Assembly (NCBI GenBank): GCA_035221665.1
Contig: CM069160.1
Span: 22,072,001 to 22,136,000, forward strand
Direction: 5' to 3'
DNA: 64,000 nt
Source: Okamejei kenojei
Taxonomy: Eukaryota
Part shown: positions 376 through 55,595 of the stretch, in pieces
Layout: every line of letters begins with the position of its first letter
Numbering within the stretch: position 1 is the first letter of the stretch
Position numbers and translations under genes: made by a program
Notes under the pieces: model-generated
Told to the model about the DNA's origin: nothing
What the model saw: only the letters and a program-made list of their open reading frames with translations
Databases searched by the model: none

Positions 376-468
376 CTGAAGTCTGAAGAAGGGTCTCTAC
401 CCGAAACGTCGCCTATCTCCATCGCTGCTGCACCCGCTGAGTTTCTCCACCCTTTTGTGTACCCTTAA
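376..468 (+). mobile_element. Short PLE 3'-terminal fragment carrying a hammerhead motif, inserted into the Rex1 RT
   Basis: Matches the end of the PLE at 43125-43219; flanked by AAATTTAATAAT (364-375) and AAATGTAATAAT (469-480). Confidence 0.85.
383..410 (+). ncRNA. Minimal type-I hammerhead ribozyme motif
   Basis: CTGAAGA-A-GGGT-CTCT-ACCC-GAAA-CG-TC: catalytic core, 4-bp stem II, palindromic ACGT stem III, GUC cleavage triplet. Confidence 0.65.
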
Positions 469-1260
469 AAATGTAATAATGGTGTTGAAAGGGTGGGAAG
501 GTGTACAGTCATAGGTGTATAAGCAGTAAAGGAGCGGACTCAGCTCACAGCCTTGAGGTGCGCCAGTGCTTACTGTGATGGAGGACGAGATATGGGGGCC
601 GGTATTAACTCTCTCTGGGCGGTTTGTGAGAACGTTTTTGATCCATGTTCAGATGGGGGAGGAGAGGCCTTGGTCAAGCAGTTTGCTGATTAAAATATCC
701 GGAATGATAGTATTGAATGCTGAGTGATAATTAATGAATAGCCTCCTCACGAGGCTTTCCCGGTGTTCCAAATGGGTTAGTGCGGTGTAAGTTGCTATTG
801 CGATGGCGTCCTCAGTGGATCTGTTATGTCTGTAGGCAAACCGATGTGGGTCGAAGGAGGGGGTAGGCTGGTTCTAATGTGATGCAGGACTAGCTTCTTG
901 TAGCACTTCATAATCACTGGTGTAAGTGCAATCGGTCTACAGTCATTCAAACCTCAGGGACTGGCTTTTTGGGAATATGAATGAGAATGGCTGACTTTAA
1001 GCAGGGTGGTGTGATAGATTGTGACGGGGAGATGCTAAAAAACTTTGTGAACTCCTGGTTATGTATTAATTGTATACGCAATTTTGACCGTTTTTGCCAA
1101 AACATAGCGGGCGATAATAACAAACGTTTTTGGTTCATTCTGTACAAAACATAATAAAATGCGTTGCAAAGAAATAAAAACAAAAGGTAATCGTGTTCGT
1201 ACATAAGGTGAACATGTCGTTGGTGGGAAAGAGCAAATTAGTCGATGATGGATCATTTAC

Positions 1261-1349
1261 CATTCCATAGAAAAACTGGCGCGACGAAGACCCATGAAAG
1301 CAGTTTATCCGAAGAACATTACCTCTTTCCTTTAACTCATTCTCCTTTT
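1261..1349 (-). CDS. Candidate coding exon 2 of an unidentified gene ((E)KENELKERGNVLRINCFHGSSSRQFFYGM)
   Basis: Pyrimidine-rich acceptor TTCCTTATTTCAG, donor GTAAAT, open frame, phase-compatible with 1909-2095; no homology recognised. Confidence 0.25.
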
Positions 1350-1908
1350 CTGAAATAAGGAAGGAAAACAATTTCAATGGTAATACACCTTACACGGACA
1401 TATCGCTAATAAAGAAGAGAATAATCCACTTCATATAAAAACATATCTAATACTAATAATTTGTTCGACATCTTCGCTTGTTAATTATTTCCATCAAAGT
1501 TCCTGGTGGTCTGGAATTGATTGCAATAATATGGAATTTGGACGAAATTGTAGAGTCTTAACATGACGTTGATGTTTCTCTGTCCTCGATAAGGTAGCAA
1601 TTACAGGATTACAGGAGACCATAACTTTACGTATGATTAAACTTATGTTAATGAAATTGTCCGTCCTAATTTAATTCTTAACTTTCAACAATCTTTAACG
1701 AGATCACCCAGTTATCGTATTCTCTGTTCCCTGCTAAATTCAAGTGGGTATTACGTTTGTAGTTGAAGTAGGAATACATTTGGCTGATGGAAACATAGGA
1801 GGCTTCAAGTTCAAGAATAAAAGCACGGCAGCAAGAGAGAACTGAATCCTCTCTTGGCCCAATCAACACCATGGTTAACTTGAGCTTCAACAACAGTTCC
1901 TAATTTAC

Positions 1909-2095
1909 CACAGTCTCTAACATCCTGGTCTCCAACATCCAGTAATTTATGAACTGCAGATTTGCATGCACGCAAGGAGCCTTGGCGTCCCTCCACTGCG
2001 GATATTTGCAAATATTCATTCGTCTTTTGGTGAATATATTTCCTCTCCTCAAGGGTCCAAACAGCAAAACTATGTATATTAAGATTTCGACTCAT
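1909..2095 (-). CDS. Candidate first coding exon of an unidentified gene (MSRNLNIHSFAVWTLEERKY...DQDVRDC)
   Basis: Acceptor TTTTAACTTTACTTAG ending at 2107, Kozak-like GCACCATGA, 62 codons plus 1 nt, donor GTAAAT; no homology recognised. Confidence 0.25.
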
Positions 2096-2579
2096 GGTGC
2101 TCTAGCCTAAGTAAAGTTAAAAACCTGCCCGGTATTTACCCTAAAGAGAGATATGAGATGCTTAGATATTTTAGCAGGAAAAGCACAACACTGTTGTGTC
2201 ACCGCGGGCAAGAAAATAATACATCTGATAACGGCACGCTTGAAACTTACTGCCGTCGTCAAATACAAAGTTAGAGACCCATGATAAAGTTGGAATAAAA
2301 ATATTTTCTGGTAATTTCCTACATCTGGGATAGAAAGTGATGAAACCGATCTGTTGATCTAGCAGCTGTTTGAATGAATGGTTACAGAATGTTGGCTAAA
2401 CGTGGATTATCTTATTTTATTCCATACAATGTTAATCTGATGATTGTACATGAAGCAAGATATGTCAGTAATTATTTATATCATATTATCTTTCATTCTC
2501 GTCTCAGCAAAAGCATAGGATCACAGCAGATCACATACGAACCTGATATTTTAATAAGACTTTCCATTTCTGTCAAGTA

Positions 2580-2700
2580 AAATAATAAATATAATGATAT
2601 TAACAACAGCAACAACGATAATACTACTACTATTGCAATTGTTACTGCTACCAGAACTACCGATACTTATATTACCATTAATAATAATAATAATAATATG
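2580..2700. repeat. Degenerate trinucleotide microsatellite ((AAT)n/(ACT)n/(AAC)n)
   Basis: Runs such as aataataataataataat and tactactact. Confidence 0.7.
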
Positions 2701-5700: not shown

Positions 5701-5736
5701 GCCGGAAATCCACCAAAGCCTGGATAGAGATTATTT

Positions 5737-6173
5737 ATAATATTGGCTTGGCGATCGTTTCGCCGAATACCTCCGCTCGGTCCGCATTACCAAACTGAAC
5801 TCCCGGTGGTTTAGCACTTCAACTCCCCCTCCCATTCCGAATCCGACCTCTCTGTCCTGGGCCTCCTTCATAGCCAGAGTGAGCACCACCGGAAATTGGA
5901 GGAACAGCTCATCATATTCCGCTTGGGCAGTCTGCACACTAGTGGCATAATCATTAAATTCTCCCAATTCCGTTAGCCGTTGCTGTCTCCTCCCCTTCCT
6001 AGCTCTCCCTCAGCCCTCGGGCTCCTCCCCATCCCGTTACCTTTATTCTCACCGCCCCCCCCCCCCACCCTCCATCAGCCTGAAGAAGGGTTTCGGCCCG
6101 AAACATTGCCTATTTCCCTCGCTCCATAGATGCTGCTGCACCTGCTGAGTTTTTCCAGCACTTTTGTCTACCT
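5737..6173 (+). mobile_element. 5'-truncated PLE (GIY-YIG C-terminus plus 3' end with a degenerate hammerhead at 6080-6107)
   Basis: LGDRFAEYLRSVR and FNSPSHS...EEQLIIFRLG homologous to the 42.6-kb copy; 12-bp TSD TAGAGATTATTT at 5725-5736 and 6174-6185. Confidence 0.85.
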
Positions 6174-7270: not shown

Positions 7271-7309
7271 TGTGCAGTAGGTCAGAACTCATCGAATCAC
7301 AAAGTGATG

Positions 7310-16574: not shown

Positions 16575-17438
16575 CATTAACCTGGCACTGAACACCACAA
16601 AGAAAAAAAGGAGCTAATACTGGACTTCAGGAGGAAACGGGACGCAGACCCGGCCCCGCTCTGCATACATGGGGCACTTATGAAAAAGGTGCAGACTTTG
16701 AAATTCCTAGGAGTCCTCATATCTGAGGACCTCTCCTAGTCTGCCAACACCATTGCAACCGTCAAGAGAGCACAAGAGAGACTCCACTTCCTGAGAGTGC
16801 TCAGGAGGCACAACATCAAGAAGAAGTTGATGGTGGCCTTCTACCGGGCGACCATTGAGAGACTGCTGACATATTGTATGTCAGTGTGGGTTGCAGGCTG
16901 CTCTGCTTTAGACTGGAAAGCGCTCCAGAGAGTGGTAAAAACTTCAGGGAGAATCACCGGCTGCCCACTGCCCTTTCTGCATTGCCACATCACGCTACGT
17001 CAGCAGAGCCACTAACATCATCAGAGCCACGCACCGCGGTCACCACCTTTTTGAACTGTTGTCCTCTGGCAGACGTTACAGGTCAGCCAAAACACGCACC
17101 TTCAGACGCAGAGAGTTTTTCCCAAAAGCAATCTTCACACACAAGATGAAAAAATACTGAGTATTATTCTTGCTGCATTTTTCCATGCTGCTACCCACTT
17201 CGCACTTTACTATCACCACTTGCAATACTGATTATTTATTTATCTTGATACCTAGTTTTATAACAACGTTTTTAATTTGTGCCCTGTGTTTTTTGTTTGT
17301 GTATTATGCACCATTGGGGTGGCAATAATAATTTAGTTTTGTGCAGTGCTTACAACGACAAATAAAGGCGCTCATTCATTCATTCATTCAGTCATTCATT
17401 CATTCATTCATTCATTCATTCAGTCATTCATTCATTCA
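16575..17438 (+). mobile_element. Rex1/Babar LINE 3' portion with (CATT)n tail
   Basis: KELILDFRRK, FKFLGVLISEDL, FYRATIERLLTYCMSVW, FELLSSGRRYRS; tail cattcattcatt at 17372-17438. Confidence 0.85.
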
Positions 17439-18759: not shown

Positions 18760-19320
18760 GGGTACACAAAAAGCTGGAGAAACTCAGCGGGTGCAGCAGT
18801 ATCTAAGGAGCGAAGGAGATAGGCGACGTTTCGGGTAGAGACCCTTCTTCAGACTGGTCAGGGATCAGGGAAACGAGAGATATAGACGGTGATGTGGAGA
18901 GATAGGAACAATGAATGAAAGATATGCAAAAAAGTATCGATGATAAAGGGAACAAGCCATTGTAAGCTGTTTGTGGTGTGAAAATGAGAAGCTGGTGCGA
19001 CTGGGGTGGGGGAGAGAGATAGAGATAGAGGGAATGCCAGGGCCCGAGGGCTGAGGGAGAGGTGGGAAGGGGAGGAGACAGCAAGGGTTAACAGAATTGA
19101 GAACATTCAATGTTCAAGCCCATAGGATGCAGACTCCCCAAGCGGAATATGAGGTGCTGTTCCTCCAGCTTGCGGTGTTGCTCACTCTGGCCGTGGAGGA
19201 GGCCTAGGACCGAGAGGTCGGATGCGGAATGGGAGGGGGAGTTGAAGTGCTGAGCCACCGGGAGGTCGGGTTGGTTATTGCGGACCGAGCGGAGGTGTTC
19301 GGCGAAGCGATCGCCAAGCC
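18760..19320 (-). mobile_element. Young 5'-truncated PLE; hammerhead motif at 18825-18852 on the minus strand
   Basis: Near-identical to 41479-42041; encodes LGDRFAEHLRSVRNNQPDLPVAQHFNSPSH. Confidence 0.9.
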
Positions 19321-20114
19321 TACGAATCGCTTTGTAGGAAGTACTATGAGTGTCCGACAGTCGTATTAGATTTTCTAATACAAATGCGCGAAATTGAACT
19401 TAAATTCTATGTTATTGGACAATCGCATTAAAGTTTTTTTTTTCTGGTGAATATAATTAGTAAAAACGCACCGACGATAATATGTTTAAAAAATAAAGAT
19501 ATAATCGACTGGTGAGCGGGAACGATTAGGGATACGCTGCGGGAAGAAAATCGAGTTTTTTTATGCGCAGCTCTTTAATGCACGCTAGAGTATTAAACAA
19601 GACCTCACCTGCTTGTTCCAAAAACACATTTAGCTTCTTAATCGCTGATGAAACCAAAATAAAATGACATTCGTAAGAGCTGGTGCTAAACATTGCACAT
19701 AATTTGCAAAGAAATTAGTTTTCTTCAATTCAACTTATGAAAATGTGTACACATTGTGCGGCTTACTGAGAAAAGTGGGGTTATAATTTCACCAATTCAA
19801 AACTTTTTCTGAATATCTTCTATTTTTTGACCTGAATACTATTCCTATTCTCAGTACATTTGCAATGCATGCACCCATTCATCTTGTTCTTTTAATATAT
19901 CGACGCCGAACATAAACATATGAAACAACAATAAACGTTCAAAACCATAATCACACATTATTCTGGACATAGTGATATTATAAAAACACAGTAGCAATAT
20001 ACATTGTATTTTGTTTTAACTATACGTGAGACATTTGGGAAACTCCAGCAACATTTCATTTAAGACAGAAGATTATATGTCAGGCTGACGTTTCGCTGAA
20101 GAGCTGCGCTCAGC

Positions 20115-20636
20115 CCGCCAAGGCCTACGCGATCTCCAGTTTGCTTAACACTTTAATTCCTCCATTTTCATTCTGACCATCCTCTCCTGGGCCTGCTCCA
20201 CTGTCATAGTGAGGACAAACGCAGATTGGAGGAACAACACCTCATATTTCGCTTGGGCAGCTTCCAACGAAGCGGGATGAAATCTAACTTCAAGTAATGC
20301 TTGCTTTCGTTTGATCTCGTTCCAGACCACCCTGGTTCTCCACCAGTTTCACTGTCCTCCTGATTCATTTTACTGTTTGTATGCCTCGTTACCAGTTTCG
20401 CCTCAGCCAACAATGAACCATACCACATCTTGACCAGCGTCTGCTTTGATCTGTCGTTTTCACACCTTACCCTTCCATATCTCCAGATTCCCTCTCCCCT
20501 AACTCTCAGTCTGAAGAAGGGTGTCGACCCAAAGCGTCACCCAGTCCTTCTCGCCGGGGATGCTGCTTGTTCCACTGGGTTACTCGGGAATGTTGTGTAA
20601 CTCTTCAGTGTGAATCAGCATCTGCAGTTCCTTCCT
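20115..20636 (+). mobile_element. Older PLE subfamily 3' fragment with a degenerate hammerhead (20511-20538)
   Basis: LEEQHLIFRLGS motif; CTGAAGAAGGGTGTCGACCCAAAGCGTC; ends in CAGCATCTGCAGTTCCTTCC. Confidence 0.8.
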
Positions 20637-20896
20637 CCAGATTACATGTAAGGCTAACGTGGTGAATGTCGTGCAAATACCAACAGTAAATAACTTGGAA
20701 GGTTCGCACGATCAGCAACTACGTAGATATGAGGTGGGTGCAATATAGAATTCCCAATTAACGAGAATGTTGTATTTAACTGTGAATTGGCGGAAGTCTC
20801 ATAGATACTCTCAGCACAGATATTGTGGCAGGTGTTCTTCCACAGGCATACATACTTCCGGATGTCTTCACAAAAATTTGGCGTAACTCTTATGCC

Positions 20897-22924: not shown

Positions 22925-23125
22925 AAGTAGCCAGCAATAGCACATTGTGGGCTCCACCTTTCCTTGGACATCGGTGCCAGCTGTGATTTGTTCTGCATCT
23001 TTTCATACCTCTAGTTTCCCTCTTTCATGAATCACAGTCTGAAGGTCGGTCGTGATCCGAAAGGTCACCCACTCCGTTTCTCCATAAATGCTGACTGATT
23101 ACTCCACCATGTTGTGTCTATCATT
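22925..23125 (+). mobile_element. Decayed PLE 3' end
   Basis: Collinear similarity to 20400-20600, including CAGTCTGAAGG...CCGAAAGGTCACCC. Confidence 0.6.
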
Positions 23126-39699: not shown

Positions 39700-41420
39700 A
39701 ATGTGTATATGTGAAAACATACATGCAAGACTACAAGACTGCAAGTCCAGATAAACTCGATGAATGTTTGAATAGAAATGCAGAAACAGAGAAGTTGATG
39801 TCCCACATATACAATGTTCTTCAAAACATCAACACCCCATCATCTGAGATTTACAGGCGTGCATGGGAATATGAGATGGGTCAACAAATCTCAAATCTCA
39901 AATGATATATGGGACGAAAGCTTACAATACTCCATACTTGCTCCTTAAATGCCAGACATTGCCTGATACAGTTTAAAGTGCTGAACAGGTAATACCACTC
40001 ATAAAACCAAACTGGACAACATTTTCACCAGTGTTTCCCCTCTTTGCGATAGTAATAATAATATATTTTATTGTCATTACACATAAGTGCAACGAGATTT
40101 GGTTTGCAACTTACATCCGATGTCATAAGTTAAACGACTTATAAAATTTAGGTTTAGATACCCCGATAACAAGGTTTGTGAAAATAGAATTAGAACAGTA
40201 AAACAGTCAAAACAGACTAAAGTGCAGATGTGTCTGTGCGACGTAGCCATCCGAGGGAGACATTCCATGGGGGTGGGGGGCACTCAGCAGGGCCGGTTCT
40301 GAGCCGCTATAGCTCTGGGAATTAAGCTGTTCCTGAGTCTGGTGGTGCGGGCGTAGAAGGCCTTGCAACGTCTGCCGGAAGGCAGTAGTTCGAACAGTTC
40401 ATTATAAGGGTGAGAGGAGTCTTTATGGATGCTGACGGCCTTCCTGAGGCACCGTGTGTGGTATATGCCCTCCAAGGCTGGTAGCGGTGTCCATATAACA
40501 TTTTGCTCTCTGTGGACGACGCGCTGAAGAGCTCTCCTCTCCGTCTCCGTGCAGCTGAGATACCACACAGAGATGCCATGCTCTCTGTCGTGCAACGGTA
40601 GAAGGTCGTCGGCAGCTGTTGGGGCAGACCAGTCCGTTTCAATGTTCTTAGGAAGGTCAGTCGTTGCTGTGCCTTTTTGACCAGCGCAGCGGTGTTGGTG
40701 GACCTTGTGAGGTCCTCTGAGTTGTGTGTGACCAGAAACTTAAAGCTGGGCACCCCCTTCACACTGTCCCCGTAGATTCCCCATTCTGTGACCTTTTCTG
40801 TGACCATAAGTGTCAGGTCCAGGAAGCCACTTTAACCCACAGTTATGTAATCTGTACAAAAATATATCTTTTTGGACGGAAATATACAGCGTCCTCTCCA
40901 ACCTACTGAAAATCCCATTAGAGCAACACTCAAAACTGATAATACTGGGACGATCAGAGGCATGTAGTAAATTGACTGCTTTTCAGCGACGCTCTGTGGG
41001 CTATGCACTAATCTCAGCAAAAAAACTCGTACTTAAATTCTGGAAGAATGCTGAAGTTCCTCCAGTGAATATGCGGTTTACAGAAATAAAAGACACATTA
41101 CATCTACAGAGAATTAGGTTTATCTTGAGTAATAAACTGGACCAATTTAAAAAAAAAATAAGGTCATATTTTATTGATTTTCTCGAGCAACACAATATTT
41201 GAACACAAATTCGAAATTACTCGTAGGGCTGTGTGAACGAGCGTATTGGTGGATCGACGGGTATATCTCCCCTCTTATTTTTTTCTCTTTTCTCTCTCTT
41301 CTGCTTTCTCTCTCTTTTTAATTCAATTTTCTTTTTGGAAAGTGTTAACATTGAAGCTCTTCACAAAGCTGTAAAATTATCAAGCTTTTTGTACAAATGC
41401 TTCCAATAAAACATTGAAAA
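39700..41420 (+). mobile_element. L1/Tx1-type LINE 3' portion (C-terminal Cys/His knuckle), split by a Rex1 insertion
   Basis: SLNARHCLIQFKVLNR...SPLCD|KCQVQEATLTHSYVICTKI...FWTEIYSVLS...AKKLVLKFWK; AATAAA near 41405 followed by an A-rich end. Confidence 0.8.
40052..40805 (-). mobile_element. Rex1/Babar 3' portion nested in the L1
   Basis: SFKFLVTHNSEDL, VKKAQQRLTFLRTLK, FYRCTTES, FELLPSGRR; (TAT)n tail; ATA duplicated at 40049-40051 and 40806-40808. Confidence 0.9.
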
Positions 41421-41448
41421 CACATTACACGTACAATTGTTTTTTTTA

Positions 41449-42549
41449 AAGAAGGAACTGCAGATGCTGGAGAATCGAGGGTACACAAAAAGCTGGAGAA
41501 ACTCAGCGGGTGGAGTAGCATCTAAGGAGCGAAGGGGATAGGCGACGTTTCGGGTCGAGACCCTTCTTCAGACTGGTCAGGGATCAGGGAAACGAGAGAT
41601 ATAGACGGTGATGTGGAGAGATAAGGAACAATGAGTGAAAGATATGCAAAAAAGTATCGGTGATAAAGGGAACAAGCCATTGTAAGCTGTTTGTGGTGTG
41701 AAAATGAGAAGCTGGTGCGACTGGGGTGGGGGAGGGAGATAGAGATAGAGGGAATGCCAGGGCCCGAGGGCTGAGGGAGAGGTGGGAAGGGGAGGAGACA
41801 GCAAGGGTTAAACAGAATTGAGAAAATTCAATATTCAAGCCCAAAGGATGCAGACTCCCCAAGCGGAATATGAGGTGCTGTTCCTCCAGCTTGCGGTGTT
41901 GCTCACTCTGGCCGTGGAGGAGGCCCAGGACCGAGAGGTCGGATGTGGAATGGGAGGGGGAGTTGAAGTGCTGAGCCACCGGGAGGTCGGGTTGGTTATT
42001 GCGGACCGAGTGGAGGTGTTCGGCGAAGCGATCGCCAAGCCTCCGCTTGGTCTCACCGATATAGATCATCTGGCATCTGGAGCAGCGGATGCAGTAGATG
42101 AGGTTGGAGGAGGTGCAGGTGAACCTCTGTCGGACCTGGAAGGACTGCTTGGGTCCCTGAAAGGAGTGGAGGGGGGAGGTGAAGGGACAAGTGTTGCATT
42201 TCTTGCGGTTGCAAGGGAAAGTGCCCGGGGAAGGGGTAGAGTGGGAGGGGAGGAAAGAATGGACAAGGGAGTTGCGGAGGGAGCGGTCTTTGCGGAAGGC
42301 AGACAGGGGGGGAGATGGGAAGATGTGGCGGGTGGAGGGGTCACGTTGGAGGTGGCGAAACTGGCGGAGGACAATATGTTGTATTTGCCGGCTGGTGGGG
42401 TGAAAGGTGAGGACCAGGGGGACTCTGCCCTGTTTGCGAGTGGGGGAATGGGGAGCGAGGGCAGTGTTGCGGGGTATGGAGGAGACCCTGGTGCGAGCCT
42501 CATCAATAGTGGGGGAGGGGAATCCCCGTTCTCTGAAGAATGAGGCCAT
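41449..42549 (-). mobile_element. Neptune-type PLE, 5'-truncated: RT C-terminal linker, Cys linker, GIY-YIG endonuclease, 3' end with hammerhead (41544-41571)
   Basis: ORF 41584..42549: RVPLVLTFHP, FPCNRKKCNTCP, NLIYCIRCSRCQMIYIGETKRRLGDRFAEH; an extra A at 41811 removes the native stop seen at 42888-42890 in the sister copy. Confidence 0.92.
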
Positions 42550-42570
42550 TTGTGATTGTCATTTGTGATT

Positions 42571-43220
42571 GTCCGACAGAGGTTCACCTGCACCTCATCC
42601 AACCTCATCTACTGCATCCGCTGCTCCAGATGATCTATATCGGTGAGACCAAGCGGAGGCTTGGCGATCGCTTCGCCGAACACCTCCGCTCGGTCCGCAA
42701 TAACCAACCCGACCTCCCGGTGGCTCAGCACTTCAACTCCCCCTCCCATTCCACATCCGACCTCTCGGTCCTGGGCCTCCTCCACGGCCAGAGTGAGCAA
42801 CACCGCAAGCTGGAGGAACAGCACCTCATATTCCGCTTGGGGAGTCTGCATCCTTTGGGCTTGAATATTGAATTTTCTCAATTCTGTTAACCCTTGCTGT
42901 CTCCTCCCCTTCCTACCTCTCCCTCAGCCCTCGGGACCTGGCATTCCCTCTATCTCTATCTCCCTCCCCCACCCCAGTCGCACCAGCTTCTCATTTTCAC
43001 TCCACAAACAGCTTACAATGGCTTGTTCCCTTTATCACCGATACTTTTTTGCATATCTTTCACTCATTGTTCCTTATCTCTCCACATCACCGTCTATATC
43101 TCTCGTTTCCCTGATCCCTGACCAGTCTGAAGAAGGGTCTCGACCCGAAACGTCGCCTATCTCCTTCGCTCCTTAGATGCTGCTGCACCCGCTGAGTTTC
43201 TCCAGCTTTTTGTGTACCCC
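42571..43220 (+). mobile_element. Inverted partial copy of the same PLE; hammerhead at 43127-43154
   Basis: Near-exact reverse complement of 41479-42132, lacking one CCAGATG unit. Confidence 0.92.
43127..43154 (+). ncRNA. Minimal type-I hammerhead ribozyme motif (best-preserved copy)
   Basis: CTGAAGA-A-GGGT-CTCG-ACCC-GAAA-CG-TC; stem I is only about 2 bp. Confidence 0.7.
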
Positions 43221-43679
43221 ACACATACAAATATGTTAGGTTAAAGCGATGGGAAAGCTCAATAACATTAATTGACTATCTACTTGATCTCCTCCCGTAT
43301 TTATATTCACGCACAGTGTATTAAACTATCAGTTGATAGTTCAACTGATAGTTCAACTGATCAGTTCAACCATCCAAAATTTCGAGTTCTCCCAGGTACG
43401 GTGATTGTCTGAATGGAAAATCAAAATACGCGTTTCTATTTTAGTGCAGATACACAAATTTAGTCGTATGTATTCGACATCCTGCATCAAACCTTAAATA
43501 TTTAACAGCTAAGAATGATTGACACAATACCACAAAGCATTTTGTTTTCGCAGATATTATTTCTCCAAGACTATTCTAGAGAGACGTAGATAACCGTTTT
43601 CCGCCATCATTTTGTTCTACACAAGTTTCTTTCTGTGTATACAAAGATGCAGTGCTCATTGCATTAGATTTGCCACATA

Positions 43680-45293
43680 CAGTGGCTTGCAAAAGTATTC
43701 ATACCCCTTGAACTTTTCCACACTTTGTCACGTTACAACCACAAACGTAAATGTATTTTACTGGGATTCTGTGTGATAGACCAACACGAAGTGGTTCATA
43801 ATTGTGAAGTGGAAGGAAAATTATACATGGTTTCCAAATTTTATTACAAATAAAAAACTGAAAAGTGCGACGTGCAAACGTATTCAGCCCCCCCTGAGTC
43901 AATACTTTGTAGAATCACCTTTCACTGCAATTACAGCTGCAAGTCTTTTTGGGTATGTCTCTACCAGTTTTGCACATCTAGAGACTGAAATTGCTGCCCA
44001 TTCTTCTTTGCAAAATAGCTCAAGCTCAGTCAGATTGGACGGAGAGGGTCTGTGAACAGCAATTTTAGTCTTGCCAGAGATTCTCAATTGGATTTAGGTC
44101 TGGACTTTAACTGGACCATTCTAACACATGAATATGCTTTGATCTAAGCCATTCCATTGTAGCTCTGGCTGTATGTTTAGGGTCGTTGTCCTGCTGGAAG
44201 GTGAACCTCCGCCCCAGTCTCAAGTCTTTTGAAGACTCTAACAGGTTTTCTTCCAAGATTGCCCTGTATTTGGCTCCATCCATCTTCCCATCAACTCTGA
44301 CCAGTTTCCCTGTCCCTGCTGAGGAAAAGCATCCCCACAGCATGATGCTGCCACCACCATGTTTCACAGTGGGGATGGTGTGTTCAGGGTGATGTGGAGT
44401 GTTATTTTTCCGCCCCACATAGCATTTTGCATTTATGCCAAAACCTTCAATTTTGTCTCATCAGACTAGAACACCTTCCTCCACATGTTTACTGTGTCCC
44501 CCACATGGCTTGTGGCAAACTGCAAACTGGACTTATTATGGCTTTGTTTCAACAATGGCTTTCTTCTTGCCATTCTTCCATAAAAGCCCGATTTGTGGAG
44601 TACGCGACTAATAGTTGTCCTGTGAACAGATTCTCCCACCTGAGATGTGAATCTCTGTAGCTCCTCCAGAGTTACCATGGGCCTCTTGGCTGCTTCTCTG
44701 ATCAATGCTCTCCTTACCCGGCCTGTCTGTTTAGGCGGACGGCCATGGACGGTAGGTTTGCAGTTGTGCCATACTCTTTCGATTTTCGGATGATGGATTG
44801 AACAGTGCTCAGTGAGATGTTCAAAGCTTCGGATATTTTTGTAGAACCTAACCCTGCTTTAAACTTCTCCACAACTTTATCCCTGAACTGTCTGGTGTGT
44901 TCCTTGGGCTTCACGATGCTGTTTGTTCACTAATGTTCTCTAACAAACCTCTGAGGCCTTCACAGAACAGCTGTATTTATACTGAGATTAGATTACACAC
45001 AAGTGGACTTTATTTACTAATTAGGTGACTTCTGAAGGCAGTTGGTTGTACTGGATTTTATTTCGGGGTATCAGAGTAAAGGGGGCTGAATACATTTGCA
45101 CGCCACACTTTTCAGTTTTTTATTTGTAAAAAAATTTGAAAACCATGTATCATTTGTCTTCCACTTCACAATTATGCGCCACTTTGTGTTGGTCTATCAC
45201 ATAAAATCTCAATAAAATACATTTACGCTTGTGGTTGTAACATGACAAAATGTGGAAAAATTCAAGGGGTATGAATACTTTTGCAAGCCACTG
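43680..45293 (-). mobile_element. Full-length Tc1/mariner DNA transposon (1614 bp) with long terminal inverted repeats (TIRs) of IR/DR type; transposase disrupted
   Basis: TA flanks at 43678-43679 and 45294-45295; ~213-bp TIRs starting CAGTGGCTTGCAAAAGTATTCATACCCC with an inner repeat GCAAACGTATTCAGCCCC. Confidence 0.97.
43899..44914 (-). pseudogene. Tc1 DD34E transposase pseudogene
   Basis: KEHTRQFRDKVVEKFKAG (HTH region), [48 protein letters not shown]; stops, frameshifts and a GTG start. Confidence 0.95.
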
Positions 45294-45984
45294 TATAACA
45301 TACCATGGCCTTTGTTCACCAGGCTTTAGCACGTCCAGACAACAAGATCCGCATTTGCGTTCAATATCTATTGATTCAAACATCACCGATGTGTCATATT
45401 TGTTCTAAATACATTTATATTCAGCAAAACGTGTAGCCTAAATTAAATAAATTGCGCTCAACATTTACCTCGAGATGCTTATCCCCTTCTACCACCATTA
45501 CACTAAACCTTCGATCTTACCTTTAATGTTATCCAAATAATTACAATAAGTTTCCAGCAATTCTCCTCCGTATCACGCTCTCAGTATTGCTTCAGACCTC
45601 CGTTACTTGTAAACATGGCAAGGTGCTTTCACTTCAGTTTGATAATCTCTGATTTTATCGCCAATCAATGCGCTTGTTTTACTTGAAACCAACAAAGGGA
45701 AATAGTTAGTTTGCCAATCTACAAACCAGATGCCTCCTTAAACCCGCGAATACCTATAGTGAAACCTTTCATATTCTCCCTCCGCCCTTGTAAATCTCCA
45801 AGGCATTTTGAAATCCCAGTGGCCTTGATGGCAGTATTTTACTGTTCTCGCGTGAAAACTTGATTTCCGCCTTGCGTGCCTTGCGAAGTGAGGAAGACAT
45901 ACCCGTTGGCTATCATTCCGTGGGTAAGCACACTTTCATTCACTGCGGTATTCAGCACGTCTAAAATGCGCGATTGGCAAGAAA

Positions 45985-46075
45985 CTGTAGATACTGCAGG
46001 AACTCAATGCGCCGGGCAGCATCAGTGGAGGGAATGGGCAAAGGACGCTTCGCATCGGGTCCCATATTCGTCGAA
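45985..46075 (-). mobile_element. Decayed PLE 3' end
   Basis: GATACTGCAGGAACTCA...GGCAGCATCAGTGGAGGGAATGG similar to other PLE ends. Confidence 0.45.
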
Positions 46076-46100
46076 TAATTTTCTTCCTGAAAATCGTGTG

Positions 46101-47003
46101 TCCTGGTATTTGTGAGGATTGTTTTTCAGAAGTTCAAAGGAAATTTGAAGCTTCTCAGATTTGTACTTCCGTTCTGATTTTCTGCACTCTCTTCTTAGGG
46201 CTCTGGTGGTGTCATTGAGCCACGGCCAGCCTTTAGGCTTAGGCTTTTTTATTTTAAGAGGAGCAACAGAATCCAAGATGGAAGAGGAAGTGGTGTTGAA
46301 TAAATCAATGAGATCATCAGTGGTGAGATGGAGGGGAGACGCCTCAATAGTGCAGATGTCGGAGTCGGCTATGATAGCCTCAGAGAACTTACTGGCAGTC
46401 GAAGCGTTTACGTAGCGGGAGTAGCGAGCAGGGAGATGGGATTTTGAGGGAGCGAGAGGCAGAGAGGCATCGAATATAAGTGCTCTACGATCAGACAAAC
46501 AGGCATCAATAATTTCTGTATTAAAACATGGGAGACCAGACGAAAGCACTAGGTCTAGTTTATGGTCAAGCTTGTGCGTGGGTCCAGTGGTGAATAGAGT
46601 CAGATTGAAGGACTCAACCAGGTTCATAAATTCACACACAAGAGGCTTTGTGGGACACAGACGAATGTTAAAGTTACCAAGAATCAGGACCCGGTCCAAT
46701 TTTGGCAACACGCTAGCGATAAGATCAGCAAATTGTATGATAAAGTCCTTATGCATTTTTGGTGAGCGATACACAAGAAAAAATAAAAGTGGACAGATTA
46801 GACCAACTATGTTCAAACATGGCGGAATGATCTGCGTTCAGAAGGCGGCAGTTGAAATGCTTCCTAAACACAGTGGCTAGGCCCTCACCGCGACTGGAGA
46901 GCCTAGGCAAGCTGAAACAGTTACAGGTATCAGGACAGAATACCACGAGTGGAGCAAGCTCACCAGGGTTAAGCCAGGTTTCTATAATCAGTAGGAAGTC
47001 CAA
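46101..47003 (-). mobile_element. L2-clade LINE ORF2 apurinic endonuclease region
   Basis: LIIETWL, VYRSPK, ILGNFNI, GPTHKLDHKLDLV, LSDR, PWLNDTTRALRRECRKSERKY. Confidence 0.85.
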
Positions 47004-47040
47004 GCCACGTCAGATGACGTCATTACCAGGAAGGAGTCAT

Positions 47041-47320
47041 TACCAGGAAGCAGTAAAACCTGCAAGAACGAAATACTTTTCCGGCCTAATTTCCAAAAAC
47101 GCTCATACCTCCAAGGTCATTTTTAGTACCATCACCTCTATCATATGTCCTGCCCCCAGCACCAGCTTACCTGGGTCCCCTGCTAAGTGCGAAGAATTTA
47201 CTGCATTTTCCTCCAGCAAAGTTAAGAACATCACATCGAATATTTCCCATCCCTTCCGTGACCTGGATGTCTCATTAAGAACTATGTTTTCCATGGATCT
47301 TGGACGAAGCAGTTCTAATT
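47041..47320 (+). mobile_element. Continuation of the same L2 ORF2 in the opposite orientation
   Basis: YQEAVKPARTKYFSGLISKNAHTSKVIFSTI...CEEFTAFSSSKVKNI continues the minus-strand ...NNPHKYQ. Confidence 0.8.
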
Positions 47321-50300
47321 AGTGAAGAATCGCTTTCTCCCACGGAAGAAACATGGATGGAAGTCCACAACAATCCACAAGCACATTAATCGGATCAAAC
47401 CTGACAATTACCACCGTTTTCCCTCGGCAAACATATCCTCGTCATCCTCTTGGTTGAGTCTACCTCAGGTTCCCTTTACTCCAGAGACAGAATCACCACC
47501 AATCACTTCAATTCTCGTGGCACCGACAAGTTTTGGTGATGGATAACGGCTGTTCCCACGCTATATTTCCGAGTACGGCGAAAAGCAGCGGTGGAAGAGG
47601 CGATCTTTGGCTTGAGAGAGAGAGAGAGGCGGTCCCGTGGGAGGGGGTGGGGCGTGGAGGAAGTTAAATCGGCAGCGAAAGAAGCCGGTCGGCCAGTGAA
47701 AGTAAATACATTGCGGCGTGCTTACAGGAGAGCGCGCTGCAGCAGTTATGGTGGCTGCCCAGCAGGAGGCCATAAAATGAGCGAGTGTGTGTGTGTGTGG
47801 GGGGGGAGAGGGGTTGGTGGTGAAGGATTTTATTTATAAATGTGTACATAAATATGTCTAAATGTAATGAGGAGTATACAATTAAAAGTGTACAGACATT
47901 CGGGTTTCTATTAAATTTATATTTACCAAAAAAAAAATGGGGCATTCCAGTTACCAGCGCTACCTGTAAAAGGACTCCATCTCGGTTTAGCAGAAACTTC
48001 TCTCCCCCTTCTTATCCTCATGGCTTGCTTTCCAAGGCATGATGCACGTTCAACATAAACACATCGTTCCCCCCCCCCCCTTTAGTATTTTAGGAGCGCA
48101 TCAATGTTCTTGATCTGACTGTTCATAAACCGACATGGAATTGACGTAATATCAGATTTAATACACGTTGTGCGCTTTGAAATTTCTTGGAAATCAGAGC
48201 ATTGCTTTACCTATGTACCTTGTGTTCGCTGCGACGTTTATCCCATCCCTGAATCATTCTCCGTATTCATGTCCATACCCTGGCCCGCCTGCCTCTTTGC
48301 TATCACTGTTAGGTTGCTGTAGTCTGCAATGCGCCTGCTTTGTTCTTTACCTACTTAGGCAGTTTTTTCACTGTTGCAAGATCTGTTCTTAAATCAATAG
48401 TAGGCTCATATTAACCCTTCTCTTTCTATTACCATGCATTCCCCTGGGCGTATTCGAAGCTATAATACCCATACATGCCATTGTTTATTGGTATTTGTCA
48501 GAATATTTGCTGATCTTGTTTAAGGTCGTTCTAAGCCATAGATAATGAGATGTTGACATCTCCTGTCGATCATTTGGCTCGCTGCATTATTTTTTTCCAC
48601 GCGTTCGCTCATTCTAGAGCTGCGAGACAACCTAATTCACATTATCATAGTGAATACTCGATGTCAATGAATTAATCAGGTTATCAGCCAATTTAACATA
48701 CCATGCTATAACTTGCCGATCAGTGGTTGATCCTTACTCCCGGTCCAACAGCGATTATCCGTTCAGCTCTCCGAACTCACTTTCTCAAACCCCTTCCTCA
48801 CAACATCTAATCTTCCCATCTCACAGCTGACATGCTGCCTGTCCATCTGAGTCCAGCATTTGGTATCCATCTTCGGTTTAAATCAACATCTGCAGTTCCT
48901 TCCCAAACATTCCACACTCCATATATATTTAAAAAATCCTGAATATGGGGCCAGTTATAGCGACAAAACATCACGGGGCTCTTACGAATAACGGTTCCAA
49001 ACAACCGTCATCCCCAGTGGATGATAATTAGAGCACCTGCAGAGAGAGTCTAATCACAATAATTCTAACATTTCATCTCTAAAATACGGCATCTATTACA
49101 CGGAACCGGAAACGACCAAGTGGTTCTGATTAATCGAATAATCGCAATTTTTCAACCGAATTGGTTAGAATGTATTATGTTATACCTGTTCAGAATTGTC
49201 CAATAAGACATTTAACTTTTTCTATCCTAGGCTGTTGCATGTAACGCGTGGAATATTTTGGAGCATATGTGATAATATGTGTATTTTACACGTGCAAATG
49301 GTTAGACGTCTGGAATATCACTATTTAATGTAAACAGCCGAACGCCTGTGATGGAATGTTCAAAGTTCCTCGAATTAAAAATTGGTTAATGGAGGTACAT
49401 CATTGCTGTGATTCGTTTGTGCGTTTTCTGCTTAATTCGGTCTTGAAGAGCTTGGTGTATTATTCATTCACTGTATGGTTATATAATTCATACTGCTGTG
49501 AAGTGTATAAACTTCGAAATTCTTCAGGGATTGGCGAAGGGATTACGCATCTCCGTGGATAGCAATATCTTATACAAACTCAAGATCTTAAGCTGAACAT
49601 CGCCCCCAGGCAGCTTCAGCTATCTTCGAAGAAATTATGACCACTGGAATATATCTGCCCGACATCTGTAACATGTGAGGTAAAACGGCGGATATTGGAC
49701 TAGCCAAGCAAATCCCAGGCCCCCATTCCGCTGGTAAATAGAGTGTACGTATATGTGTCTGCCACTGCTATATTTTTTCACATTCCACTAACGTCACTGA
49801 AATGATTCCATTAGGTGACTTCTTGTCCATTAGTAAAAGGCATGCAATTCGCGTTATGATTTTTATTAATATCCAAACCAGTAGAATAACATATGAAGTG
49901 AAATATTAATAGTGTCATTAAGTAAACACACATACATATAACGAAGTAAATGAATACAGTAGCATTAAACCATGCAATTGCAACCCTAAGCGGCTGCATG
50001 GATCTGTCATGAAACCAATTATATTATTTGAGAAGGATATAACGACGAGCATAAATTGAAGGTTTATTTATGTTGCAGCTAAACAGGATTCGTATATGTT
50101 AACTAAAATGCTATGTGATGTGCTCCCAATCTCCACTCAGGAATTCATCAAACATCTTTATAAATAGTCAACAATCAATTATGTACTTTAGGTGGCTTCC
50201 TGTAACCATAGAAGGAAATGATGACATTTTGCTTCCATTATTTGATCATGTTTCCGTTTCGGCTAAATGTCCATGAAGTAACGAGGCGGATTTGATGGCG

Positions 50301-51714
50301 GTTTATTCAGTTTAGGTCTCTATCGAAATTAGTTCGAATTTCACCCATTTGTGGTTAATGATTCGCATGATCGAATGCCGTGTTTTGTCATTTGAGGAAA
50401 GTTAATTTAAAAGGTCCATCTGAAGTAGAGGTAATTTCTGAATTTAACTGATTTAAATTACTTTCAAGGAATTCATAAATAATTTAAGATGCACAGAACT
50501 TTTTTTAGTTCTAAACTATATATACACGCTATCAAAAACTCGGGTATGGAATGGCATTGCTGAACATGTGGAGGAATAATGAAAATACAATGGATACGTG
50601 AGACGGCATTATCGTAGAGAGAAATGCAGTGTGCATTTCAAAAACGTTGATCACTTTTCAGAGTAGGTGAGGGTTCGTCATCTTATGATAAAGTGAACTC
50701 AATCTCCCACTCCACACTCTCCACTATCCCAGCCCGCCTCTTAATTCGGGAATTATTTAGTAATTTCGAAGAAATGTTTTCCAATGTTAGTCTTCCTTTA
50801 GCAAAAAGTGTTTGTTTGTTATCATGTTCTCATGCATAATATAGGAAATGGGAACAATTCGGTGATACCGCTATAAAGCCGCATTGGGAACACTTCCAAC
50901 GTGCCGAACATATCCAAGACAACTACATCTCTATTTCACCGAACAATATGTGTAATGCATGGTTCGCAAATATCAAAATTTCTACGTTCACATTCTGCTT
51001 CAAATAAGAAAGTACATGATGATGAAACTTTAATATCATAGCCAGCCTAAAATTCAATAGTTATTCCACACTCTCTAGCCTGAAGATTCGTTGATATCAT
51101 TAACAATAATCCGCTTCTTATTTTAGGCATCCAACCTTTCTCTGACAAAAACAGCATTGTTTCATTGTCCGGTGACAATTTCACCTTCCACTTAACAGGT
51201 AGAGCATGTTTCTTCGTAAAGCTGTTTTCTAAAACATGATTCTGTGTGTCGTTCAAAAGCACTTGGAAAAAGACGAACAGATGAACAGCTTTGCAGATTG
51301 TTTTACATAATGGAAAGCGGTACTATACTGTAATGCCAAAATGTATATAATAAAAGAGTGTTACGAGCATATTTAAAATAAAGCAAATAGATCCAGTTGA
51401 AGCAAACAGACTGTTTTCTCTTGAGCTCCGATACTGCTGTCGCATAAAGGACAATAGGGTTACATGCGTCCTGCAATTAAAAATAAGTAAAATTAGGCAG
51501 CAGGTAAAGGCTAATTTTGATTTAACAATTTTGAAAATAAAATCCTTTGAACCGACTTGGCAGAACATGACAATGTGAAATTGGAGCATTTGTGTTGTAT
51601 TTGAGAATTTAGTTTCCTTCTCCTTTGAACCAAATCTTACCGAACCAGCCTACAGTTTAGACTATCCATCCATTTTGTTACACTGGCCACTCTTCACCAA
51701 CCCGGATGCAGTCT

Positions 51715-52745
51715 GTAGGAAGAAACTGCAGATGCTGGTTTACACCGAATATAGGCACATAATTCAAGAGGAACTCAGCGGGATATGCAGCGTATCTGTG
51801 GAGAAGGAATGAGTGAGAATTTCGGGTCGAGATGCTTCTTCAGAATTATATCAGGGGAGAGGGAGATACATAGATAAGAAAGTGTACGGTGTGAAAACGG
51901 TGCATCGTTAGCTGGTATAAGGTAACATCAAAACAAACAGCGATATAGACAATAGGGAATAGATAATAGACAATAGAAAACAGGTGCAGGTGTAGGCCAT
52001 TCGGCCCTTCGAGCTAGCACCGCCATTCAATGTGATCATGGCTGATCCTGCCTTCTCCCCATATCCCCTGATTCCGCTATCTTCAATAGCCCTATCAAAC
52101 TATCTCTTGAATGTATCCAGTGAATCGGCCTCCACCGCCCTCTGAGGCAGAGAATTCCACAGACTCTCAACTCTCTGTGTGTAGAAGTATTCCTCGCCTC
52201 CGTTCTAAATGGCTTATCCCTTATTCTTAAACTGTGCCCCCCTAGTTCTGGACTCCCCCAACATCGGGAACATGTTTCCTGCCTCTAGCGTGTCCAAACC
52301 CTTAATAATCATATATGTTTCAATTATCCTTCTAAACTCCAGAGTGCACAAACCCAGCCGCTCCCTTCTCTCAGCATATGACAGTCCCGCCATCCCGGGA
52401 ATTAATCTTGCCAACCTACGCTGTCCTTCCTCAAATTAGGGGACCAAATCTCCACACAATACTTCAGGTTTGGTCTCACTACGGCCCCATATAACTCCAG
52501 AAGGACCACTTTGCTCATGTACTCAACTACACTTATTATAAAGGGCAACATGCCTTTCGCTTTCTTCACTGCCAGCTGTACCTACAACCTCACTTTCATT
52601 GACTGATGAACAAGGACCCCTCAGATCCCGCTGTACTTGGTAAAATGTAGTAGGAGACTGAAAGTGGTCTGAGATCTGGGTAGAGAAAGGGACGGAGGGA
52701 AAGGGAAATCTAAGGATACATGAAGTTAGAAAGTTCAATGTTAAA
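51715..52745 (-). mobile_element. Older PLE 3' end interrupted by a CR1 (51945-52638)
   Basis: GGAAGAAACTGCAGATGCTGG...TTTCGGGTCGAGATGCTTCTTCAG; the PLE resumes at TAAAATGTAGTAGGAG, collinear with the reverse complement of the 20.3-kb copy. Confidence 0.7.
51945..52638 (-). mobile_element. CR1 3' portion with (AATAGAC)-type tail
   Basis: RLIPGMAGLSYAERRERLGLCTLEFRR...KGLDTLEAGNMFPMLGESRTRG; homologous to 29768-30485. Confidence 0.9.
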
Positions 52746-53097
52746 GTTACGGATGCAGTCACGGATTTCGTCCCTCGGCTGCAGTCACGGTTTTCGTCCC
52801 AAGAAGGTGGAAAGCGAGAGCAAGAGAAAGCCTCAGAAAGCAGTGAACGAATAGGTATATTAAATCGTTCTTGAAAGGGTATTTGTAATAATTGGGGCAC
52901 AACATGACATATGCCAAGGCGTTTCTACAAATGGTATATCCTCGAACCACATGGACATGGTTTTAAATTAAATCTGAGGTAAGATAAACATGAAGTGCAA
53001 ATAAAATACCTCTCGTATAGTATAGTGAATCTGGGATTCTCAATTTCGCCCCTCTGTCCATGTAGAAAATCGTAAAACGATTTAGTTTACTATTGCC

Positions 53098-53297
53098 TAA
53101 GAAGGAAATGCAGTGCTGGAAAATCGAAGGTAGGCAAAAATGCTGGAGAAACTCAGCGGGTGAAGGCAGCATGTATGGAGCGAAGGAAATAGGCAACGGT
53201 TCGGGTCGAAACCCTTCTCAGACTGAAGGTGCCTATTTCCTTCGCTCCATGGATGTTGCCACACCCGCTGAGTTTCTCCAGCGTTTTTGTCTACCTT
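53098..53297. mobile_element. Fold-back element built from two inverted PLE ends
   Basis: Arms 53128-53196 and 53230-53297 are reverse complements; the loop holds a mutated minus-strand hammerhead. Confidence 0.85.
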
Positions 53298-53369
53298 AGC
53301 TTGTTATTAACCCGTGTACCGAGTTACAGCATATAGGTTTGTTTTGCGTGCCATACATTCAAAGAACCT

Positions 53370-53555
53370 TTGCATGAATACAATCTGTGCACAGAGCACA
53401 GGTAAAGGATAGACCATAAAGGATTGATTATGCAGCTGGCCTTGCCGAGGCAGCGAGATGTACAGATGGAGTCAATGGAAGGGAGGCCTGGGCTACGTCC
53501 ACAACTCTGCAATTTCGTGCGTTCTTGCATCGAACAGTTTGTGATGCAATAGCTG
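53370..53555 (-). mobile_element. Decayed Rex1 3' fragment
   Basis: LPSIDSICTSRCLGKASCII. Confidence 0.6.
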
Positions 53556-54324
53556 GTAAAAAAAATGTAACCATATAAAACAAAACATTTTACCTGCATT
53601 CGATCTTTCCCGATCCTCTGTTGTGGCAAAGAGAAGGGAGTTGTAAACGTCGATGAGAAATATATGCTCTTCCAGAAATAACTTGTATAATCGTGTATAA
53701 TTCTTAATAATTCTACAGGGCCCAAACTATTAATTCAACTCATGCTTCTGATGTAATTATTAACCTTTAATTTAAGGTGCTAACCTCCAAGTGCAAACTA
53801 ACCCTTGCAGTTCGGTAAATTTATCGGGCGAATAAATACTTTTAAAGTTCATCTTTATATTATCTGTTTCCCTCTGTGTACCTGTGACATACGTATAAAC
53901 GGGGTAATGCTGTTTCTTGTTTTGCACAGCTATTGCTAGATTTCTCCGCGATAGATAAATCAAACGATTCACTGCCGTATATCTTAAGACATTTCTTCTA
54001 ATATCCGTCAAAGATATAAATCCCTTTCCCAAGACAGAAATCGTTGGTTATGACACTTTCCTCATGGGAATCAATAATCTTCCATCAAGCCCCCATCCCC
54101 GTAATATATTTGAACTGACATCTCATTGCAGCAAATCGGGAGAAATGAAGTTGGACGAACTGTAAACCTCTGTAGGAAAGGTTTTTCCATATTTGATATG
54201 GAAAGTTAGGGAGGACAAATATATCCACATTATAACCATCGTAGTCTTACCATTGCCCCATTAAAGATAATTTAGTTTCGTGCTGAAATCCTACCATCAT
54301 AAAATCCAGATTACTTGTCATCCT

Positions 54325-55595
54325 AGGTAGACAGAAAGGCTGGAGAAACTCAGCGGGTGAGCCAGCATCTATGGAGCGAAGGAATAGTGACGTTTCGGCT
54401 CGAGGCCCTTCTTCAGACTGATGTTGGTGTGGGGGGTGGGGGAGGGGAATGAATGAAAGAGGCGGAGACAGTAGCCCGTGAGAGAGCTGGGAAGGGGAGG
54501 GGAATGGGAGGGGAAGGAGGGAGAAAGCAAGGACTATCTAAAATTGGAGCAGTCAATGTTCATACCGCTGGGGTGTAAATTGCCGAAGCGAAATATGAGG
54601 TGCTGCTCCTCCAATTTGCCGTGGGCTCAATCTGACGATGTAGGAGGCGCAGGACGGAAAGGTTGGATTCGGAATGGGAGGCGGATTTGAAGTGCTGGGC
54701 CACCGGGAGATAAGATTGGTTAATGCGATCCGAGCGGAGGTGTTGGGCGAAGCGATCGCCAAGACCGGACTTGGTCTCACCGATGTAGAGCAGTTGACAC
54801 CAATAGATGACGTTGGAGGAGGTGCAGGCGAACCTCTGCCTCACCTGGAAAGACTGATTGGGTCCTTGGATGGAGTCGAGAGGGGAGGTAAAGCGTGTAG
54901 CATTTCCTGCGGTTGCAAGGGAAGTGTAGCATTTCCTGCGGTTGCAAGTGAAATTACCGTGGGGAGGGGGGAGTAGTTTGGGACGAATTGACCAGGGAGT
55001 TACGGAGGGAGCGGTCTCTGCGGAAATCCGGGATGGGAGGAAATGGAAAGATGTGGCCAGTGGTGGGATCCCGTTGGAATTGGCGAAAATGGCTGAGGCT
55101 TATCTGTTGTATGTGACGACTGGTGGGGTGGAAGGTGAGGACAAGGCGGAATCTGTCCTCGTTACGAGTGGAGGAAAGGGGAGTGAGAGTGAGCTGCGGG
55201 ATATAGCGGAGACCCTGCTGACAGCCTCCTCTATAGTCGAAGAGACGAACCGTCGTTCCCTAAAGGATGAGGATATCTCCGATGCCCTGGTTTGGAACTC
55301 CTCTTCCTGGGTGCACATGCGGCGTAGACGGAGCAATTGGGAGTAGGGGATAGAGTCCTTAGAGAAGCAGGGTGGGAAAATGTGTAGTCCAGATTGCAAT
55401 GGAAATCAGTGGGTTTGTAGTATATGTCGGCAATCGTCTGTCACCTGCGAAGTGACGTCTAGAAAGGGTAAGTGACGTCTATAGTGACGTCTAGAAAGGG
55501 TAAGGAGATGTCGGCAATAGTCCAGGTGAATTTCTGTGCCGGATGGACGTTAGTGGTGAAATAGATGAAGTCAGTGAGTTCTGCATGGGTGCACA
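54325..55595 (-). mobile_element. Neptune-type PLE, older subfamily (RT C-terminus to GIY-YIG and 3' end; hammerhead at 54389-54416)
   Basis: KDSIPYSQLLRLRRMC, RQRFACTSSNVIY...LYIGETKSGLGDRFAQH; internal tandem duplications at ~54895-54952 and ~55451-55502. Confidence 0.9.

Follow-up and report, generated by a model that had tools for sequence, protein, structure and literature searches.

Hammerhead motifs and copy ends of a putative Neptune-type Penelope-like element in Okamejei kenojei

A 64,000-nucleotide stretch of the Okamejei kenojei genome (assembly GCA_035221665.1, contig CM069160.1, positions 22,072,001–22,136,000, forward strand; hereafter the window) contains dispersed copies of a hammerhead ribozyme motif that belongs to the terminal repeat of a Penelope-like element (PLE), apparently of the Neptune type. 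Most copies are stubs, probably left by reverse transcription that began at two fixed sites behind the ribozyme, read a cut site that had not been cut, and ran off the probable 5′ end of the element RNA before CUGA. The motifs likely mark the start of the element RNA; that they cleave host RNA on a large scale as active ribozymes is unlikely.

Hammerhead motifs and their carrier

Positions are numbered from the first C of CTGA (+1); an extra A is +8, stem II consists of +9..12 paired with +17..20, and the predicted cut lies after +28. The six motifs that a preliminary description of the window had placed at 383–410(+), 18825–18852(−), 21391–21417(+), 41544–41571(−), 43127–43154(+), and 54389–54416(−) are exact, each reading CTGA(A/G)GA-A-(hairpin)-GAAA-CGTC. 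The pattern CTGANGANGN{8,22}CGAAACGTH matches the window six times, versus a mean of 0.01 and a maximum of 1 in 100 dinucleotide shuffles. A profile hidden Markov model (HMM), seeded with ten window copies and iterated once, yielded 18 window matches: these six, all six decayed copies that had been named, and six more at 21006–20900(−), 53228–53300(+), 58984–58887(−), 46069–45988(−), 48827–48900(+), and, weakly, 32662–32760. Among the additional matches, 20900–21006 begins within stem II, 53228–53300 begins at the cut site, and 48827–48900 is tail only. The HMM gave 0 matches on the reversed sequence of a 1.064-Mb unbiased genomic sample (sixteen 50-kb blocks and a further 264 kb including the window).

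The core (C3U4G5A6N7G8A9, G12A13A14, A15.1, U16.1, H17) is present in all six strict window motifs. CTGA-GA and GAAA-GT-H are retained in seven of eight family consensuses, and two old ones show CpG decay. Stem III is reduced to the palindrome ACGU, as had been described. Stem II was said to vary while mostly keeping its pairing, which stands for the motifs at 383, 18825, 41544, and 43127 (a clean 4-bp helix) and fails at 54389 (two mismatched pairs) and 21391 (a deletion); the variants do not amount to paired change, as they differ mainly in the loop or by single random substitutions, with no compensatory pairs. The 2–3 bp attributed to stem I are found in five copies (2 bp in four, 3 bp at 54389), and the stem is absent at 21391. 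An Rfam scan at E ≤ 10 returned seven matches, none of them to a hammerhead family. The extra A had been given as a caveat on activity; a reading of it as a defect is rejected here, as it is an already described feature of PLE hammerheads; it occurs together with other traits of this type, namely G+9/C+20, the palindromic ACGU, and a position in both pseudo-long terminal repeats (pLTRs) of the intact unit L055.

This unit was found by using the window GIY-YIG frame as a genome query, which gave 150 scored matches at 98–100% identity. L055, one of the 20 long loci examined, holds an intact unit of ~4 kb, comprising a hammerhead, a 1,197-aa frame, a pLTR, and a second hammerhead 3,955 nt away; it is preceded by a partial copy that reaches 803 nt upstream of the motif, and its open reading frame (ORF) begins ~130 nt after the cut site. 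The window pieces at 18760–19324, 41477–42556, and 42571–43219 are 97.5–98.9% identical to this unit with a hammerhead at each end, and the earlier assignment of the motifs to PLE ends, as minimal type-I hammerheads, is borne out by the pLTR context and by L055 itself. The frame encodes a reverse transcriptase (RT) followed by GIY-YIG (PF00078, E 5e-6; PF01541, E 0.004; both below Pfam cut-offs), and its Atlas look-alikes at 0.98 carry RVT_1 and GIY-YIG. The L055 sequence contains DKG, RPIVS, QGVAMG, and YIDD, which we take to be PLE RT motifs. Both L055 and window 41584–42558 contain LIYCIRCSRCQMIYIG and CNRKKCNTC, that is, a CCHH-type endonuclease in which two Cys lie between GIY and YIG, together with a CX4CxxC linker. 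A CCHH motif and a CX2-5CxxC linker are traits of Neptune and Nematis (PMC8557442). Judged by these protein motifs, the element appears to be an endonuclease-positive (EN+) PLE of the Neptune type, with a linker common to Neptune and Nematis. A partial pLTR tandem, an inverted 5′-truncated copy, and a 30–40-nt tail on one end are all seen, in L055, at window 41449–43219, or in the copy ends mapped below.

Where copies begin and end

A 28-mer from the tail of the young family occurs 47,187 times; the ends were mapped in the first 100 of these copies, all within the first 5 Mb of contig C1, each extended against L055. The 3′ ends of 98 copies fall at two fixed sites, 64 at +88..95 and 34 at +125..132. 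The 5′ ends pile up in front of the ribozyme: 56 lie in −6..+8, 15 in +9..+43, and 29 farther upstream, of which 8 are in −300..−7, giving a per-base hazard ratio of 47 for −6..+8. Three of the 29 reach the edge of the locus and were left out of the read-through analysis. The cut site is crossed by 94 of the 100 copies. Stub insertions are ~95 or 128 bases long, and many have target-site duplications (TSDs) of 9–25 bp. Among copies that reach the stop zone, long-tail (18/26) and short-tail ones (38/59) both stop there. In each of the 13 head-to-head pairs detected, a long end is combined with a short one (P 4e-5); the same holds for the window pairs 41449/43219 and 53098/53299, and 43 of 74 copies outside the 13 pairs also begin in −6..+8.

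Among 48 copies picked at the ORF start (from 867), the motif is reached by 16, of which 10 have their end in −6..+8 and six pass this zone, two of the six lying in a single tandem array. L302 has unit length and starts at +5; L301 contains two joined pieces, both from +3. Joints in the X6 contigs, which come from another organism's run and, like those of X1 and X2, are probably DNA, also converge on −3..+5. The sequence common to the subfamilies begins at CAGT, and the pLTRs upstream of it differ. The boundary reads CCAGTCT or TCAGTCT, both of which match the initiator consensus YYANWYY. In many ORF-start copies the 3′ end lies near +185–195 or +220 (L241–L270, L303–L318), which hints at further RT start sites within the ORF.

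The mechanism that we regard as probable starts from an element RNA whose 5′ end would lie at about −3..+3, at the initiator-like CAGT. RT would start at either of the two sites behind the ribozyme, pass the uncut cleavage site, and run off this end just in front of the CUGA box; priming of both target strands, one per start site, would produce the inverted pairs. By analogy with published tests on other PLEs, the ribozyme may cut only as a dimer or together with the protein of the element: a single PLE motif tested without a partner showed no cleavage (PMC4209133), and cleavage by the Anolis motif depended on the PLE protein (PMC11167929). For the dispersed copies, the prediction is that most are inert and that their decay is neutral. 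A more specific version can be offered tentatively, in which the PLE transcript would start 2–3 bases before the hammerhead and the ribozyme would be a 5′-terminal switch. The uncut capped RNA would then serve as template, 'strong-stop'-like stubs would integrate by the hundred thousand, and protein-assisted cleavage would strip the RNA of a capped leader of 30 nt and either retire it or divert it to another route. If true, such a switch would explain why PLE hammerheads are mostly solo motifs.

Several observations weigh against run-off from an RNA end. The zone is passed by 6 of 16 ORF-start copies and 29 of 85 tail-picked copies, a similar share, as a stall predicts, and the CAG/T boundary follows a pyrimidine tract and resembles a 3′ splice site, as in Drosophila virilis. 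The excess of G before starts at −2 speaks for run-off where it is seen, in 1,271 of 3,580 cases (35.5%, versus 28.3% expected) and in 13 of 23 independent events from 30 loci (P 0.004; 11/20, P 0.011, without three loci seen earlier), but the latter test needed duplicates to be collapsed after the fact, and in the 100-copy set the excess is not significant (9/24, P 0.21). Positions +29..+33 hold 5 of the 15 ends in +9..+43 (P 0.05), and a minority of templates may have been cut. In addition, non-CpG core positions are off consensus less often than tail boxes (94/1,439 versus 304/3,169, P 0.0005), in copies chosen for aligning through the 5′ core, a choice that itself favours a lower core difference.

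It is rather unlikely that the pile-up instead reflects a longer RNA in which a folded or protein-bound hammerhead (or dimer) makes RT stall. A roadblock of this kind fits the share of stops, which is alike in tail-picked (56/85) and ORF-start-picked copies (10/16), and the inversion junctions that also lie inside the motif, with inverted arms accounting for 11 of the 15 ends at +9..+43; however, the stops are beyond the hairpin and not at its 3′ foot. The lone long-range helix predicted over the core (+2..+11 with +116..+125, in the minimum free energy pair list) cannot form when copying has begun at +126, but long-tail copies end in this zone as well. The modest G excess also fits run-off from an end rather than a stall.

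We consider it quite improbable that the boundary serves as a 3′ splice site like that of D. virilis Penelope, with copying stopped on a splicing intermediate or junction. The D. virilis intron extends to the 5′ side of helix I (PMC4209133), with splicing of most transcripts (PMC2377424), and here every subfamily with a pLTR has a pyrimidine tract and YAG; nevertheless, the 30 copies that start at −2 share no upstream exon, their recurrent flanks being duplicated loci, and candidate branch adenines are only 5 and 12 nt from the AG. No GT..AG joint to the site occurs among the joints listed for contigs of eight runs (15 of 68 and 15 of 26). A 75-nt GC..AG joint in a single X6 contig, probably DNA, has a poor donor and was set aside.

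Two other views of the short copies were rejected. The fold-backs are not an autonomous short interspersed element (SINE) or miniature inverted-repeat transposable element (MITE), as their junctions differ and 0 of 100 copies share a downstream flank, a few having been passively multiplied in other repeats. Nor do the copies form a non-LTR retrozyme array: the window has no head-to-tail array, and direct doublets are only occasional among the copies (L193, L065). At L065 4320–4590, three hammerheads lie in 110 bp within a (TCTA/TCTG)n microsatellite, two direct and one inverted, a natural candidate for a close dimer.

On the run-off mechanism, each young insertion records where copying began and ended. 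Uncut templates ending at the front edge of the ribozyme argue against the published cleaved or circular RNA as the usual template, at least for this PLE family. The role of PLE hammerheads has been called unclear (PMC8557442, preprint), and the end map makes it testable.

Window insertions, genomic load and host RNA

The PLE-derived pieces of the window are as follows (identities are to the L055 unit).

380–465(+): stub of the young subfamily, hammerhead 383–410 and short tail; begins 2–3 nt before CUGA, no pLTR upstream.
5745–6172(+): 3′ end of an older-subfamily PLE with the GIY-YIG end, pLTR, decayed hammerhead from 6080, and tail; 84–87% identity.
18760–19324(−): young PLE 3′ end, intact hammerhead 18825–18852, short tail; 97.5% identity.
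20089–20647(+): old PLE 3′ end, decayed hammerhead from 20511 with the general-base G lost at a CpG, long tail.
20900–21006(−): tail arm with a long tail; its start lies within stem II, and it is oriented away from the 21389 arm.
21389–21476(+): stub, hammerhead 21391–21417 (stem II deletion, no stem I) and short tail; begins 2 nt before CUGA.
23035–23127(+): decayed hammerhead and tail, with a pLTR remnant upstream.
32575–32648(−): decayed hammerhead (32617–32644) and partial tail.
41449–42556(−): long arm of an inverted young PLE insertion, with GIY-YIG frame 41584–42558, pLTR, intact hammerhead 41544–41571, and long tail; 98.9% identity over 41477–42556.
42571–43219(+): inverted arm of the same insertion, intact hammerhead 43127–43154, predicted cut after 43154, short tail to 43219; 97.9% identity.
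45988–46069(−): heavily decayed hammerhead and tail (HMM).
48827–48900(+): tail-only fragment (HMM).
51706–51899(−): old pLTR remnant, decayed hammerhead (~51816–51843), long tail.
53098–53299(both strands): fold-back mini-insertion; minus arm with decayed hammerhead (~53195–53221) and long tail, plus arm from the cut site with short tail.
54326–55593(−): 3′ part of an older-subfamily PLE, hammerhead 54389–54416 with intact core and damaged stem II; 75% (body) and 88% (tail) identity.
58887–58984(−): heavily decayed hammerhead and tail (HMM).

The pieces at 5745, 20089, and 54326 are older relatives of the L055 unit. At 20900–21476, two outward-facing arms, one with a long and one with a short tail, flank a ~380-bp piece of the 3′ end of another long interspersed element (LINE; 21008–21356), which we take to be CR1-like; no TSD was seen there, and a later insertion, a captured filler, and two separate events fit equally well. 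PLE stubs often lie at microsatellite-like 3′ tails of other repeats (window 51706–51945; L161, L174, L213, L219), presumably CR1-like or SINE-like. Elsewhere in the window, 216-bp inverted arms (91%) at 43677–45296 surround a Tc1-type transposase piece (44469–44858; PF01498, E 5e-22), and a Pfam search of five window frames gave no match for the PLE pieces. A purine-rich minisatellite of AGAGGGC type (period 13–19 nt) occupies 23500–24330. Other LINE-type pieces, at 1–261, 16596–16868, 40284–40831, and 46022–47322, have no Pfam match and are presumably L2-like, judging by protein motifs.

The very large genome-wide motif load that had been proposed is confirmed. In the genome of 2.76 Gb, one 28-mer has 48,215 exact copies (control 0), and the general pattern has 108,957 matches (control 24), or 39.5 per Mb, ~1 per 50 kb per strand. 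In the 1.064-Mb sample, the HMM has 388 matches, which extrapolates to ~one million fragments; strict matches number 25, below the genome mean, so motif density is uneven. Of the 296 HMM matches long enough to cluster, 38 are still preceded by a pLTR, 99 lie within 150 nt of an inverted copy, and 159 are solo with unique flanks. The 28-mer at −27..0 has 17,417 copies, compared with 47,187 for the tail 28-mer and 867 at the ORF start. Many motifs are nearly the whole insertion, rather than the end of a long PLE piece. Copy counts include passive copies, as 5 of 30 loci starting at −2 lie in one larger repeat. In L285, L287, L291, L299, and L300 (and in blocks from L076–L080 and L096–L100), one fold-back stub, flanked by a TSD of 10 bp, is part of a larger repeat of at least 1.7 kb that has since multiplied. 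Elements with PLE hammerheads are a known class, represented in the O. kenojei genome by a very young family that has intact units and whose near-identical insertions number in the tens of thousands. With most motifs being by-products of failed copying, as the end map suggests, motif counts overstate the active ribozyme load.

Support is poor for the suggestion that cleavage might befall any transcript that runs across the region, and it is very improbable that the dispersed motifs act widely on host transcripts as active ribozymes. In its favour are the ~109,000 core-matching motifs at the density given above, the three same-strand motifs on each strand of the window, the pooled difference between core and tail boxes, and the depletion of tandem retrozymes from introns and exons in Xenopus (bioRxiv 10.64898/2026.07.22.740005). 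Against these, every core base is kept in only 45 of 388 HMM matches, many copies are in the close inverted pairs counted above, 94 of 100 element templates were uncut when copied, and published single motifs are inactive without a partner or protein. CpG decay is similar in the 3′ core (93/356, 26%) and in tail boxes (35/122, 29%), and at those A positions of the 3′ core that lie clear of the alignment edge the change does not differ significantly (58/714 versus 108/1,066, P 0.16). Stem II pairing in the copies equals the independent expectation (226 versus 228.7, 223 versus 224.2, 236 versus 235.0, 258 versus 258.5). The inference of host cleavage is weak.

Family consensuses contain every catalytic base. 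Across the six larger ones, helix II is invariant and so unable to covary, and 15 of 16 core positions show no change, versus 5 of 14 in the linker. Tail boxes at +103..120 are just as fixed (18 of 18), so that in active lineages constraint acts on the core and on these boxes as well. In the ViennaRNA folding ensemble, the probability is ≤0.01 for stem II and 0.00 for helix I (2–3 bp); adopting a hammerhead-ready fold costs ~8 kcal/mol, and the ACGU dimer helix is worth only −1.7 kcal/mol. A helix I of 2 bp is already known from D. virilis (PMC4209133). The fold-back at 53098–53312 is predicted to form a single hairpin of −133 kcal/mol. In the predicted tail fold (L055 3650–3780), AGAUGCUG (+49..56) pairs with CAGCAUCU (+103..110), both invariant in six subfamilies; the two 3′ ends would lie at the feet of an inner (+90) and an outer (+125) helix, the latter of which would hide the catalytic core. 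Folding z-scores of the tail fold are unremarkable (−1.5 to +0.8).

Comparison with known systems

PLE hammerheads with an extra A and a palindromic stem III have been in print since 2014 (PMC4209133). The motifs of that paper share with those described here the core, the extra nucleotide between 9 and 10.1, G10.1–C11.1, the palindromic 15.2–16.2, and the absence of loop 3, and they too are mainly single and dispersed, with opposite-strand pairs 100–700 bp apart. Helix II is 4 bp and helix I 2–3 bp here, whereas those of the Schistosoma families are 7–8 and 4–5 bp, and helix I of D. virilis is 2 bp (PMC4209133). The 108,957 motifs compare with ~4,000 and ~9,000 reported for coelacanth and Xenopus, with different search patterns (PMC4209133). 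The consulted parts of the main text and supplement file 2 of PMC4209133 include no cartilaginous fish, and those parts hold no mapping of copy ends. In the open-licence literature, we found no report of 5′ ends piling up at a PLE hammerhead or of elasmobranch PLE hammerheads.

Non-LTR retrozymes are likewise short, non-coding, and PLE-derived, with a type-I hammerhead, and one chondrichthyan is included among the tandem retrozymes; they differ in forming head-to-tail arrays with a hammerhead per unit, whereas the copies here are dispersed monomers or head-to-head pairs with junctions of their own (bioRxiv 10.64898/2026.07.22.740005). Insertion units of EN+ PLEs show the same partial tandems, adjacent inverted 5′-truncated copy, tail on one end only, and variable TSDs, as well as an initiator-like motif in rotifer pLTRs, but the copies here are mostly 95–130-nt stubs or 200–250-nt fold-backs centred on the ribozyme (PMC3846280, PMC8557442).

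The element also resembles PAc, Poseidon from Anolis carolinensis (Frangieh et al. 2024, PMC11167929), in which two internal RT start sites also bound a 30–40-nt tail, both target strands are extended, uncleaved RNA is the main substrate, and the hammerhead lies in the pLTR near the ORF start. The PAc ORF starts inside stem II, in contrast to ~130 nt after the cut site here, and the protein here has the Neptune/Nematis Cys linker; a 5′-end pile-up is not described for PAc in the consulted parts of that paper, and the evidence here is genomic only. An antisense template has been argued for (PMC3846280), but the fixed 3′ ends and scattered 5′ ends of the copies described here fit the sense-template result obtained with PAc better (PMC11167929).

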